Below are positions 3,104 through 52,080 of a DNA stretch of 64,000 nt, piece after piece. Both the position numbers and the translations under genes were made by a program. Origin of the DNA: Raja brachyura. Lineage: Eukaryota. The notes beneath the pieces were generated by a model. It was not told the origin of the DNA and did no database searches. It was given only the letters and a program-made list of their open reading frames with translations. The stretch covers positions 45,322,001-45,386,000 of the forward strand of contig OY740791.1 of the NCBI GenBank assembly GCA_963514005.1, written 5' to 3'. The first letter of the stretch is position 1; every line of letters starts with the position of its first letter.

Positions 3104-4799
3104 TCGATAGAAAACACTCTTGAGGTATTACTTCGTGAAGTGGAGATATTGGGTATAAATGACAACTCTCCAACTTTTCCAGGAAGTCGTTTCTCAGTAC
3201 ATCTTGCTGAGTCAGCTCTACCAGGTGGGCGATTCTCCTTGGAGAAGGCCTACGGCCCGGACGTGGGAACACATGCAGTCACCGCTTAACATCTAACCAC
3301 AAACGTCCATTTTAGCCTCAAAACGAGAAGACAAACGATGGTGGCATAATCGAATAATTGTTCTTGGAAAAGACTACGAACAGAACTCACCATTTGAACT
3401 AGAATTAGCCGCTATTGACGGAACAAACCCGAAAAGGCCAGGCGCAGCTCAAATTGTAATTTCTGTGATGGACACCAATGATCATAGCCCTGTCTTTGAT
3501 CAAGACCTGTGCAGGGCGCCTATGTTAGAAAACGCAGCTGAGGGAACTCTGGTGATCAAACTGCACGCAACCGATTTAGACGAGGATGAAAACGCTGAAA
3601 TCAAATATTCGTTCGGTAAGAATGTTCGTTCGTCTGAAGATGGGTCTCGACCCTACACGTTACCCATTCCTTCTCTCAAGAAATGCTGCCTGTCCCGCTG
3701 AGTTACTCCAGCATTTTGTGTTTACATTCGTTCGGTAAGTACATTTCACACACAGGACGCGACTTGGTCATCTTGGAGGCGGAAACTCGAGATATAAGAA
3801 CTAAAGGCTTTCCGGATTTCGAGAGATCAAACGTTTGTGAAGTCGCAGTGCAAGCAATGGACAATGCCCCACACTTTGGCTATGCCAAGGTGTTGGTGAA
3901 TATAATAGTCGTAAACGATAATGCTCCCGTTTATAAAGCAAATTATAAACTGTTCACCACTGATTTGTTGGATCGGGTAAAGATTGTATCTTACAACATA
4001 CGTATTTTTGTCAGGGATCTTTGTGCTTTTAACGAATAATACCATCGCCATTTATGTTGCGGACATCAAAGATAATCCACCACATTTCACCCAGCCATCG
4101 AATCATGTTTATTTGACAGAAAATAATATTCATGGCGCGTTTGTTTTAACCACTACTGCTTTGGATCCCGATTTCGTCTGGAACGGGGATATTTCATATT
4201 CCATTCTGGAAAATCAGATTCAGGAGGATCCCACTTATGGATACTTTTCTATAGACCTATAGTGGGAGTATTTCTTCATTACACTCCTTTGATTATGAAG
4301 AAATTAAGAACTTGTTGATCAAATTCCAGGCTCAGGATAATAGCTTTCCGTCACTGACCAGTACTGCTACTGTACACATTACTATCCTGGATCTAAACGA
4401 CAATGCACCAATTATTATTACGCCATTATTGTGGAATGACTCTGTGTCTCTGGTGAAAGTCCCACCTTGGGTATCTCCCGGTTACATGGTTACAAAGGTT
4501 ATGGCAAAGGACGCTGATTCTGGTCAGAACGCGCGGCTGTTTTATAAACTAGTTGAGGCTACCGATTGGAATATTTTTACTGTTAGCCATGATTCTGGTG
4601 AAATCAGGGCAACTCGAAGGATTACAACGGAGAACTTCGTCAGCCAATGACTGGCGATATTGGTGAAGGACAATGAACAACCGTGCCTTACAAGCATGCT
4701 CATGATGTTATGTCCCTTCATGGCAAACACTACTGTTCATCTCACTGAAACCATACATCATCACAGACAGATAGAACATTTTTCGATTCTAAATATATA
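3104..4799 (+). pseudogene. Clustered protocadherin variable-exon pseudogene (end of EC1 to just before the TM segment)
   Basis: Reads EVEILGINDNSPTF, DTNDHSPVF, ATDLDEDENAEIKYSFG, LDLNDNAP, AKDADSGQNARL and EHFSILNIY, with several stops, frameshifts and an EC4 deletion. Closest to the 12847 gene. Confidence 0.9.
3621..3725 (+). mobile_element. Short Penelope-derived (hammerhead-motif) element inserted in the Pcdh pseudogene
   Basis: gtctgaagatgggtctcgaccc...gctgagttactccagcattttgtg flanked by a 14-bp direct repeat attcgttcggtaag (3607-3620, 3726-3739). Removing it restores KYSFGKYISH. Confidence 0.8.
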
Positions 4800-5190
4800 T
4801 CTATATTACTAAAAGTCTAATTTTGACCACTTCCTGTTGTTCTGTATATTGATTTTAGAAAAAGGCTGCTACTTACGGCTGTGATTTCTGGCCATCTTAC
4901 TCAGAGTCCCCCTCGGCTGTGCAGGACAAGAGGATTTTTCCCATCGATGAAAAATAAAAGAGTTATTAATGTTTAAAACATGTTGAGATTCTCTCTCCTG
5001 AAGGCCACGCCCCTTCCGGATGGACTATAAAACCCGGAAGTGTTGAGTACCTCAGTCAGTCTCTGCAAGATGGGGGAGTGAGAGGGTCACGTCCCTCAGT
5101 CTGAGCTGTGAATAATACTGAACACATGTCTACTAAACTGTGAGTGGTTTTACTGACCTGTCAGTGCCCTTAATGTAGTTTGAAAATATA

Positions 5191-5456
5191 GTTTGGAAAT
5201 GCTAAAGCTATGTTGCCTTTGATTTGGAAATGCTAAAGCTGTATGCCTTTGGTTTGGAAATGCTAAAGCTGTGTTGCCTTTGGTTTGGAAATGCTAAAGC
5301 TGTGTTGCCTTTGGTTTAGGAAATGCTAAAGCTGTGTTGCCTAATTAAAGTTGCCTTGTCTAATTAAAGTTGCCTTGCCTAATTAAAGTTGTCTTGCCTA
5401 ATTAAAGTTGCCTTGCCTAATTAAAGTTGCCTTGCCGATTTAAAGTTGCCTTGCCT
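5191..5456. repeat. Two adjacent minisatellites: about 5 x 31 bp and about 6 x 19 bp
   Basis: tttggaaatgctaaagctgtgttgcctttgg repeated over 5191-5341; ctaattaaagttgccttgc repeated over 5341-5456. Confidence 0.9.
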
Positions 5457-5733
5457 TCTATATAATTAAAAATCTAATCTTGACCACTTTCTGTGTGTGC
5501 TTTATATTGATTTTAGAAAATAAACTACGATGTACGGCTGTGATTTTTGACCATCTTATTTAGAGTCCCCCTCCGCCCATCAGGTGCCGAGGATATTTCC
5601 CATCGATGAAAAATAATAGTTATTAGTTGTGTTAAAAATATTCAGATTCTCCTGTCAATCATGCCACGAATGTATGGGCATGGCTCAGTCTCTGCAAGAT
5701 GGAGGAGGGAGAGGTCACGACTCGCTGTCTTTA

Positions 5734-5860
5734 GTGGCCTTGCACCCTGCTTGAAATGGTATGCAACCTCACTTGAATTTGGTGGGCTTGCACCCTGCTT
5801 GAAGTGGTAAGAAACTGCACTTGCATTTTGTGGCCTTGCATCCTGCTTGAAATGGAATTT
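5734..5860. repeat. 48-bp tandem repeat, about 2.6 copies
   Basis: gtggccttgcaccctgcttgaaatgg and close variants occur three times at about 48-bp spacing. Confidence 0.8.
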
Positions 5861-49604: not shown

Positions 49605-50163
49605 CAGGACTAGCATTCATGGCAAAAGGATTTGAGTATAGGAGCAGACATTCTTGCCATAGAGGGAGTACAGAGAAGGTTCACTAGACTGATTCCTGGG
49701 ATGTCAGGACTTTCATATGAAGAAAGACTGGATAGACTCGGCTTGTACTCGCTAGAATTTAGAAGATTTAGAGGGGATCTTATAGAAACTTATAACATTC
49801 TTAAGGGGTTGGACAGGCGGGATGCAGGAAGATTATTCCCGATGTTGGGGAAGTCCAGAACAAGGGGTCACGGTCTAAGGATAAGGGGGAAGTCTTTTAG
49901 GACCGAGTTGAGAAAAACATTGTTCACACAGAGTGTGTTGAATCTCCTGAATTATCTGCCACAGCAGGTAGTTGAGGCCAGTTCATTAGCTATATTTAAG
50001 AGGGAGTTGGATGTGGCTCTTGTGGCTAAGGGGATCAGGGGGTATGGAGAGAAGGCAGGTACGAGATACTGAGTTGGATGATCAGCCATGATCATATTGA
50101 ATGGCGGTGCAGGCTCGAAGGGCCGAATGGCCTACTCCTGCACCTAATTTCTATGTTTCTATG
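49605..50163 (+). mobile_element. CR1-clade LINE 3' fragment
   Basis: EGVQRRFTRLIPG...LEFRRFRGDLIETY, 3' UTR and tttctatg tail. Confidence 0.9.
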
Positions 50164-50401
50164 CTGTAATTTGCTTGCCACTTTAATTTTAATGTCAGCC
50201 ACACTCCGAATACACTTTCTTTGGTCCCTTACACCGTGGACAAGAAATACTTTATCACCTTTTGACTAGGCATTTTATGTTTCGGAAGATTGAAAAGTGA
50301 GTTACACAAGTATATATAACCATTCATTGACTATTCTATCAAACCTGCACTATTCTGATGAAAGATCATCAACAACATAATCAATATTAAATATTAATTA
50401 A

Positions 50402-50591
50402 NNNNNNNNNNNNNNNNNNNNNNNNNNNNNNNNNNNNNNNNNNNNNNNNNNNNNNNNNNNNNNNNNNNNNNNNNNNNNNNNNNNNNNNNNNNNNNNNNNN
50501 NNNNNNNNNNNNNNNNNNNNNNNNNNNNNNNNNNNNNNNNNNNNNNNNNNNNNNNNNNNNNNNNNNNNNNNNNNNNNNNNNNNNNNNNNNN
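50402..50591. other. Assembly gap (190 N)
   Basis: Run of N. Confidence 1.
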
Positions 50592-51985
50592 CTCTGAGCA
50601 AGCAAAATATTTGAACTCTGGTGCCCAGATGAACTTTACATTCAACTATGTTTTGCATTGTCTATTTGAAGGTCGTTGGATGTTGTTGCTGACCTGTGAT
50701 GCGAGGGCAGTTTAAGTTCTTTATGATTAATTACATACGTTTTTCAGTAATTATGTTGTTTCGTTTAGTTTAGGTAAGTAAATATCGTATCACAATTTTG
50801 TAATAATCTTTAAATAATTGTATTAATTGAAAAAGTCGTCAGTGGTGGTTGTAGCGACTATCGTGCTAAAGGATTCGAATTTATATATTGCATGTTGGGT
50901 CAACAATGTGGTCGACAATGTATGTGGCAGACGCATCAGTATTCTAATTGAGAATAGTCAACGACCATGACAATAATGTTAAATTGATGGTCAGTGGCTG
51001 TTGATTAGACTATGCAGTCTGAAATATTTATTAGCCGCTTATTAGGCAGCGCCACTGTTACTTGATTGTGTAATAAAAGTATATTGCCGCTGAGTGTGAC
51101 CAGTCCTAATCAAATTAGATATTCTATTGTGTAGTGAATAGGGTCCAGCAGTCAATGGACAGCTTCGCTCTGGTTCCATTCGACCATGCATTTGCTGACA
51201 AGTCTTTCAATCATGCTTGACCAAATTCAATCACGGAGTCTAGGGCAGTTCTGAAACTATAAACCTCGCGTGGACTTTTGGACCATTGTAGTAACCCAGC
51301 CTAAACTTCAGTGACTTTAGCATAATGCAAAGTAAGCATCAGCCTGAAAATTATTACGAAGTTAGTGCTGCATTAACCAGTTTACCATGAATGAACACTA
51401 ACCGCTGGAGTGGCATTGAGCAAAATATTGCAGCACGCCATTGTTTAACACCTGAACTATTTTAGTTCTCAATGAATACGATTTTGTGGTCGTGTTCGAC
51501 TAAAATCAATAGATTTAGTTCTGCAACACGATCCTGCAGCCCTCCACTCAGAAAATTGTCTGTCAATAGTTTTTTCTTCATGATTTGGTTACAATGGCAC
51601 GTTGATATCAAGGAGTGTCAATTTCACTTAAGACAGGAAATTCCCTCGAAAGTTGGAGATGCTCGTCGAATATCACATTGCTTGCTCGAGTGTGAAGCAA
51701 TAACTTTGACTGGAGGTGTGAATTGTTCAAAAGCACAGACATTCAGCGTTATACCTGGAATATTTTGGACGCAGCAAAGTTTCTTCCTTTCAAACCATTC
51801 AACAAATTATTGCTATCACGGAGGATGCTTTCGGTCATGATGGATATCCACGTGATGAAACAATCAAATAGACTGAATGGGCGGCAAAAGCATTAGTCTG
51901 TGCTTCGTCACGAACGTATATCTCTCCGATTATTGAAATGCCGATGCTCATAACCATCATTCGTGCACTATTGTTTTATCTACAG

Positions 51986-52080
51986 ATAGACACAGAATGT
52001 TGGAGTAGTTCAGCGGGCCAGGCAGTATCTGTGGGGAGAACGAATGGTTGACGTTACGGGTCGAGATCCTTCTTCAGACT
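51986..52080 (-). mobile_element. Short Penelope-derived element
   Basis: gacacagaatgttggagtagttcagcgggccaggcag...gacgttacgggtcgagatccttcttcagact. Confidence 0.75.

Follow-up and report, generated by a model that had tools for sequence, protein, structure and literature searches.

The 5' ends of short terminal-repeat copies of a Penelope-like element cluster just before a minimal hammerhead motif in Raja brachyura

The window analyzed here is a 64-kb stretch of the Raja brachyura genome (GCA_963514005.1, contig OY740791.1, positions 45,322,001 to 45,386,000 of the forward strand) in which short repeats with a minimal hammerhead ribozyme motif are scattered through a protocadherin (Pcdh) cluster; we identify these repeats as the 3' ends of an endonuclease-bearing Penelope-like element (PLE). 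Cadherin-repeat frames follow one another on the + strand about 10 to 12 kb apart, at 12829-15246, 20800-23031 (split by one stop at 22171-22173), 30154-32709, 41176-43737, and 53611-56415. Both of the long + strand frames tested with Pfam, 12829-15246 and 30154-32709, are protocadherin exons. At 2800-4700 (+), a protocadherin variable exon is broken, containing several stops and frameshifts. One of the repeat copies (3621-3725) is inserted within a cadherin repeat of this exon; reading picks up after the target site duplication (TSD).

A first search of the window used the copy at 44750-44860 as the query, and a second used a profile derived from 54 copies linked to an open reading frame (ORF). 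The profile found 14 copies, 7 on each strand, at 11 loci, confirming the repeat family that a first-pass annotation had claimed at these 11 places; TSDs of 12 to 16 bp flank four of the loci, in keeping with its proposal of independent insertions. Solo end-pieces lie at 3621-3725 (+; 11-nt junction filler, GAAA box broken, 14-bp TSD at 3607-3620/3726-3739), 6647-6736 (+; GAAAC-GUC part deleted, no TSD found), 15279-15372 (+; GUU-type subfamily, CUGANGA box mutated, 16-bp TSD at 15263-15278/15373-15388), 20500-20598 (-; GAAA box broken, no convincing TSD), 44253-44356 (-; CUGANGA box mutated), and 51982-52082 (-; GAAA box mutated). Two end-pieces carry a tail: that at 29533-29646 (+) lacks the first bases of its CUGA box, and that at 29753-29877 (-) has both boxes exact and a G-G mismatch in stem II. 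The other three loci are head-to-head pairs (24305-24478, 33005-33159, and 44688-44848 in the profile search). An old pair spans 24267-24478 (- arm with tail, 24267-24385; + arm, 24392-24478), with both CUGANGA boxes mutated. A young pair at 32964-33164 (12-bp TSD at 32952-32963/33165-33176) has a tail on the - arm only; its arms are 99% complementary over 78 nt and join inside stem II, with CUGANGA in neither. The third pair, at 44686-44888 (12-bp TSD at 44674-44685/44889-44900), combines a short - arm (44686-44757) with a tailed + arm (44754-44888). Within the latter is the only intact minimal hammerhead outline of the window (44759-44786, +), composed of CUGAAGA, a 4-bp stem II, GAAAC, and the GUC that the first-pass annotation had placed at 44786.

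The strict motif CTGANGA-N13-GAAACGTH, allowing at most one mismatch, matched the window five times against 0.05 expected, and two matches were exact (44759, +; 29876, -). An Rfam scan of the window returned no hammerhead family at E values up to 5; its top matches were generic hairpins on the fold-back at 33.0 kb. We number the motif from the C of CUGA (position 0), which puts the predicted cut after +27. By alignment, the 5' ends of 11 of the 14 window copies fall at -14 to -1 and 10 of them at -6 to -1, so that the earlier remark that several copies start almost at the motif is accurate.

Remnants of PLE ORFs had been suspected near 19490 and 46290. The first is a decayed piece of the region from reverse transcriptase (RT) to endonuclease (19464-19841, +; nhmmer E value, 3e-14) with no end-piece attached on the same strand; the second (46191-46389, +) is weak and at best a possible, very decayed remnant (nhmmer E value, 0.006; tblastn E value, 0.11). 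It adjoins an inverted repeat of 139 nt (46524-46662/47011-47149) whose halves are 94% complementary and 348 nt apart.

The identity of the repeat emerged from the rest of the genome. Among its 30 best genomic matches, one locus had a GIY-YIG-type C terminus just upstream. A genome search with this C terminus gave 105,084 first-look candidates, and 56 of the 61 distinct endonuclease C termini at the loci examined had the repeat behind them on the same strand, at a distance of no more than 260 nt in 53 cases. Of 20 loci picked for long RT frames, two (L137 and L131) have the order repeat-ORF-repeat, with the repeats ~3.97 kb apart, and the full-length copy at L137 is flanked by a 14-bp TSD. A frame of 1,167 amino acids at another locus matches RVT_1 (E value, 9e-5) and GIY-YIG (E value, 0.0015), both below the Pfam cut-offs, and contains the motifs DKG, YIDD, and YIGET as well as a C-x4-C-xx-C linker at residue 1034. 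Because 56 of 61 endonuclease ends carry the repeat next to them and full-length copies carry it at both ends, we conclude that the repeat is the 3' end, a pseudo-long terminal repeat (pLTR) plus an optional tail, of an endonuclease-bearing (EN+) PLE. The family displays the hallmarks of EN+ PLEs: an ORF with RT and C-terminal GIY-YIG, a pLTR at both ends, an inverted 5'-truncated copy, and a one-sided tail. The link to Penelope pLTRs drawn in the first-pass annotation therefore holds, whereas its "non-autonomous unit" does not follow, as the same sequence types are found behind endonuclease ORF ends, though a stub-only lineage may exist beside them.

A CX2-5CxxC linker is described for Neptune and Nematis and not for Penelope/Poseidon (Craig et al., 10.1101/2021.04.23.441226). 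Judged by this linker, a feature that Nematis also has, the element appears to be Neptune-type rather than a Poseidon. At L137 and L131, the likely start codon lies ~165 to 170 nt past the 5' hammerhead, after a splice-junction-like AAG/GTATG, and a long Pro/Ser/His-rich region precedes the RT core. Their ORF would be about 1,250 amino acids, longer than that of PAc, the Poseidon element of Anolis (Frangieh et al. 2024, PMC11167929).

An unselected sample of 1.16 Mb, made up of 116 segments of 10 kb each placed at round-number coordinates, contained 453 repeat copies, about 390 per Mb; reversed-sequence controls of genome samples gave no matches to the repeat profile. Extrapolated to 2.7 Gb, this density corresponds to roughly 1.05 million copies. 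We aligned 442 of the 453 copies to a 55-member library of ORF-linked repeats and dropped 11. The 3' ends cluster at about +87 to +99 and at +123 to +133, the two ends of the PLE tail. The 5' ends form a single peak, with 212/442 copies, and 125/260 strict solos, ending at -8 to +3. The per-base chance of a 5' end is 0.108 there, versus 0.008 to 0.016 at +4 to +30 and 0.015 at -50 to -9, and only 19/442 ends lie around the cut (+25 to +30). A first, narrower search detected TSDs at 11/140 solos; a wider one detected them at 21/241 solos (0 to 2 in the null) and 22/81 pairs (0 to 1 in the null), most copies having no detectable TSD. Of the 21 TSD-anchored solos, 14 start at -8 to +3, at varied exact positions, and none at +25 to +30; the template was therefore mostly uncut RNA, and the junctions were made anew. 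Thus, the unit is not "ribozyme-delimited" as proposed at first: copies keep the whole motif, and few of their ends lie at the cut.

Among 124 peak solos with flanks, 98 keep unique, non-pyrimidine-rich upstream flanks, one of them PLE-derived. Given these flanks and the TSD-anchored solos in the peak, the library cannot be the main source of the peak. In 21 informative copies that begin with AGTCT, the preceding base differs from the templated C; it is G in 13 of them (P = 0.001), the pattern that a copied cap would give. The site itself, YCAGT, is kept in all ORF-linked subfamilies seen and is initiator-like in its match to the initiator consensus. We rejected a spliced leader, with CAG at -4 to -2 as the 3' splice site as in Drosophila virilis: no leader is common to the peak copies, with 1/98 flanks PLE-derived, and GT-AG ends occur in none of the 15 joints listed out of 44 in contigs of four runs.

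Inverted pairs are a second regularity. Among the 453 copies, 174 (38%) are oriented head to head and 10 tail to tail, and tandem neighbors are rare (4/235 sampled copies; none in the window). Of 83 pairs, 52 have a single tailed arm and 29 have no tail at all; tails on both arms occur in 2 pairs, versus 9.4 expected (P = 0.003). The arms belong to one subfamily, with identities at diagnostic columns of 0.82 versus 0.57 (73 scorable pairs). Rare variants common to both arms occur in 7/83 pairs (mean, 0.084, versus 0.055 by chance), no real excess in a comparison of little power, and no editing scar is seen, with A>G counts of 47/1,742 in pair arms versus 102/3,086 in solos. The head-to-head pair with a one-sided tail is the published PLE unit and, given that the two strands are both extended in PAc, is compatible with a priming event at each nick; each arm would then be a separate cDNA. 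Head-to-head pairs with similar flanks recur at four loci (L048, L068, L086, and L181), which suggests that some other repeated element carries one such pair within it.

The ORF-linked copies have the minimal type I hammerhead outline that the first-pass annotation recognized: CUGANGA, a bulged base, a G-C first pair of stem II, GAAA, the palindrome, and NUH. Stem II measures 4 bp, or 5 bp with a 2-nt loop. In the subfamilies seen, helix I consists of just 2 contiguous pairs, with a predicted probability near 0, rather than the 4 to 5 bp expected. Among 256 motif-spanning copies, 99 have both boxes, 62 also have stem II and NUH, and 47 the palindrome as well. Non-CpG core positions are kept at ~95%, compared with 88 to 95% at non-CpG positions of invariant downstream blocks, and the catalytic G12, which lies in a CpG, is kept in 255/383 copies (67%), with G>A at 31% versus 17 to 28% at three other CpGs. 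Hence, among copies, the CUGANGA and GAAA boxes are not conserved above their surroundings, contrary to what the ribozyme reading called for. The covariation check on stem II was likewise unfavorable: two-sided changes occur in at most 4/256 copies per pair, the others being one-sided or pair-breaking, in a set of copies whose shared ancestry leaves low power. The copies decay neutrally, with no selection on the stubs to stay catalytic; the source elements may well be selected for the hammerhead, as its conservation across subfamilies suggests. For 44759-44786, folding predicts full pairing between the cut site and the inverted arm upstream of it, and the hammerhead-compatible fold lies 13.5 to 15.9 kcal/mol above the ensemble; for young ORF-linked copies the difference is 8.7 to 10.3 kcal/mol. 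These folding values are no proof of inactivity, because they are monomer nearest-neighbor estimates and the PAc ribozyme needs the PAc protein (PMC11167929).

We consider it quite probable that the repeats arose as short insertions derived from the pLTR of a Neptune-type EN+ PLE and that most of them are run-off cDNAs of uncut RNA. The PLE reverse transcriptase would prime inside the repeat and run off the start of the uncut RNA just before the hammerhead motif. Such a course has a precedent in PAc: its protein cuts each target strand, extends both, and uses two internal priming sites that delimit the tail, ribozyme cleavage being unneeded (PMC11167929). The arms of a pair would come from the two nicks, one cDNA at each start site; the pile-up of genomic junctions would mark a putative RNA 5' end at the initiator-like YCAGT; and the stubs would carry the hammerhead along as a passenger that probably does not cleave Pcdh pre-mRNA. 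A bolder version, which we regard as speculative and rather improbable, has a capped RNA starting 3 to 5 bases before the hammerhead core and about half a million stubs that are "strong-stop"-like cDNAs primed in the 5' repeat and re-copied in trans, making them the smallest PLE-driven short interspersed element (SINE), bounded by transcription start and not by ribozyme cleavage. Since every stub would retain an internal promoter along with the start site and the two priming sites, the stubs could be re-transcribed and copied in trans.

Several observations weigh against an RNA start at this site. Contigs of four presumed RNA runs, out of 24 listed that all consist of contigs, show neither RNA starts nor RNA ends. 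The 5' ends are scattered across ~12 nt. Positions -4 and -5 are included in many of them (21 and 41 of 442); the cap-like G points to an A downstream of these, at -3. Upstream subfamilies absent from the 55-member library inflate the peak at -5. The copies at L137 and L131 begin about 65 to 90 nt before the motif, so that either a template jump or a longer RNA is required, and in D. virilis Penelope the start is 46 nt before a 75-nt intron ending at the hammerhead (PMC2377424, PMC4209133). The near-palindrome TCAG-T-CTGA at the same site could also set the ends without a transcription start. On that account, the same PLE would produce the pile-up from the DNA side, the cDNA end folding or annealing through TCAG-T-CTGA, or the enzyme stalling at the upstream pyrimidine tract plus CAG, with the RNA starting further upstream. 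It would explain why several pair junctions are perfect palindromes centered at -1 and why a non-templated T precedes TCAGTCT in 9 of 16 clean solos; short inverted fillers occur, and self-priming at palindromic junctions has been proposed for rotifer PLEs (PMC3846280). But most pair junctions lie away from the palindrome and their arms still often end at -5 to +3, the excess of G at -4 (13/21) is not predicted, and the one-arm tail pattern suits two priming events better than one folded cDNA. We hold this explanation to be rather unlikely.

A SINE-like origin concerns the source of the stubs, which would be a non-autonomous family with an internal promoter and a priming site, self-transcribed and copied in trans by the PLE protein. 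Stubs outnumber endonuclease ends ~10:1 (453 copies versus 43 tblastn matches, some duplicated), 212 stops fall within 12 nt among the 284 copies extending as far as +3, one common type with 27 copies has a single endonuclease link, and the promoter of D. virilis Penelope is internal and TATA-less (PMC2377424). Yet each of the four commonest types has at least one ORF-linked copy, no stub-specific variants are shown, and an ordinary PLE transcript primed within its 5' repeat yields the same product; we regard such a family as doubtful. Far less credible is the unit conceived in the first-pass annotation, with ends set by hammerhead self-cleavage and residual cleavage of Pcdh pre-mRNA. In its favor, the outline is intact in 62/256 spanning copies and common to all ORF-linked subfamilies seen, and ends are in slight excess at +26 to +28, with 13 there versus 25 in 11 neighboring positions (one-sided P = 0.048, post hoc). 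This excess also counts against templates that were uncut throughout, and cleavage may occur rarely. Against self-cleavage as the rule stand the scarcity of ends near the cut (19/442, and 0/21 among TSD-anchored copies), the rarity of the tandem neighbors that a dimer ribozyme or retrozyme needs (4/235), a helix I of only 2 bp, a hammerhead-compatible fold predicted at 9 to 16 kcal/mol above the ensemble, and a single intact copy among the 7 sense copies of the window.

Nor do the PLE insertions single out the Pcdh genes. At 2.2 copies per 10 kb, the window falls below the sample mean of 3.9 (standard deviation, 3.2), and its copies have no strand bias (7 +, 7 -), so we rejected a Pcdh-specific enrichment and conclude that PLE end-pieces are not special to the Pcdh cluster. 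The relevance to Pcdh transcripts suggested earlier is further weakened by the one intact sense copy having a cut site predicted to be fully paired. Any effect on these transcripts is more likely to act through fold-back duplexes of 65 to 95 bp than through cleavage, both being hypothetical. Other elements in the window include long terminal repeat (LTR)-retroelement-like remnants with aspartyl-protease and RT RNase H matches (27999-28802 and 1508-2101, both -) and remnants of the long interspersed element (LINE) type at 47267-49180 (-; RVT_1 with an ALKBH8_N-like C-terminal match) and 34109-34555 (-; AP-endonuclease piece). A tandem array of a 19-nt unit in about 7 to 9 copies occupies 5308-5478, and a weak match to the CPEB3 ribozyme (hepatitis delta virus-like) at 7761-7824 (-; 22.9 bits versus a gathering score of 35; E value, 0.12) is probably due to chance.

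The class and architecture of this element are already published; the point of interest is the fixed 5' stop before the hammerhead. A search of the open literature, with subscription papers and Repbase outside its scope, found no paper that describes the family or a clustering of 5' ends at the hammerhead. With about a million insertion junctions, this one PLE family provides a natural record for testing priming, 5' joining, and the formation of inverted pairs. If the stop is indeed a transcription start, the ribozyme lies in the first ~30 bases of the RNA and cannot serve to free the element from an upstream transcript.

The canonical EN+ PLE unit consists of a pLTR, an adjacent inverted 5'-truncated copy, and a 30- to 40-bp tail on one end (10.1101/2021.04.23.441226; PMC3846280). 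Our family shares the head-to-head inversion, the tail on one side, the TSDs, the occurrence of solo pLTRs and of full-length copies with partial tandems, and the Neptune CX2-5CxxC linker. It differs in that copies mostly comprise only the last 90 to 135 nt and have clustered 5' ends; the text available from those reports describes no such cluster. Its motif resembles the minimal hammerheads in the pLTRs of metazoan PLEs (Cervera and De la Pena 2014, PMC4209133) in its type I layout, CUGANGA and GAAA boxes, unpaired base before stem II, G-C first pair, palindromic stub replacing helix III, and pLTR location, and there too most motifs are dispersed, single truncated copies. Unlike the Schistosoma families of that study, with a stem II of 7 to 8 bp and a helix I of 4 to 5 bp, ours has 4 and 2 bp; helix I of D. 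virilis Penelope is also 2 bp. The main text of the same paper names no cartilaginous fishes and reports thousands of motifs, versus ~1 million copies here. Animal non-LTR retrozymes (Li et al. 2026, 10.64898/2026.07.22.740005) likewise have a type I hammerhead derived from PLE pLTRs and are found in one chondrichthyan genome, but they form head-to-tail tandems with at least two complete ribozymes, whereas our copies are solo or head to head. We rejected this identity, as head-to-tail hammerhead units are absent from the window and tandem neighbors amount to 4/235 sampled copies. PAc belongs to the Penelope/Poseidon clade and its ORF starts at stem II (PMC11167929); here, the linker is of the Neptune kind and the likely start codon lies ~170 nt past the motif. 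The two are alike in having two tail-bounding priming sites roughly 100 to 140 nt downstream of the hammerhead, in extending both target strands, and in using an uncleaved RNA template, and no RNA ends are found at the cut site in PAc. Our counts thus agree with the in vitro picture of PAc, with its two priming sites, both strands extended, and uncut RNA, and add to it a fixed 5' stop.

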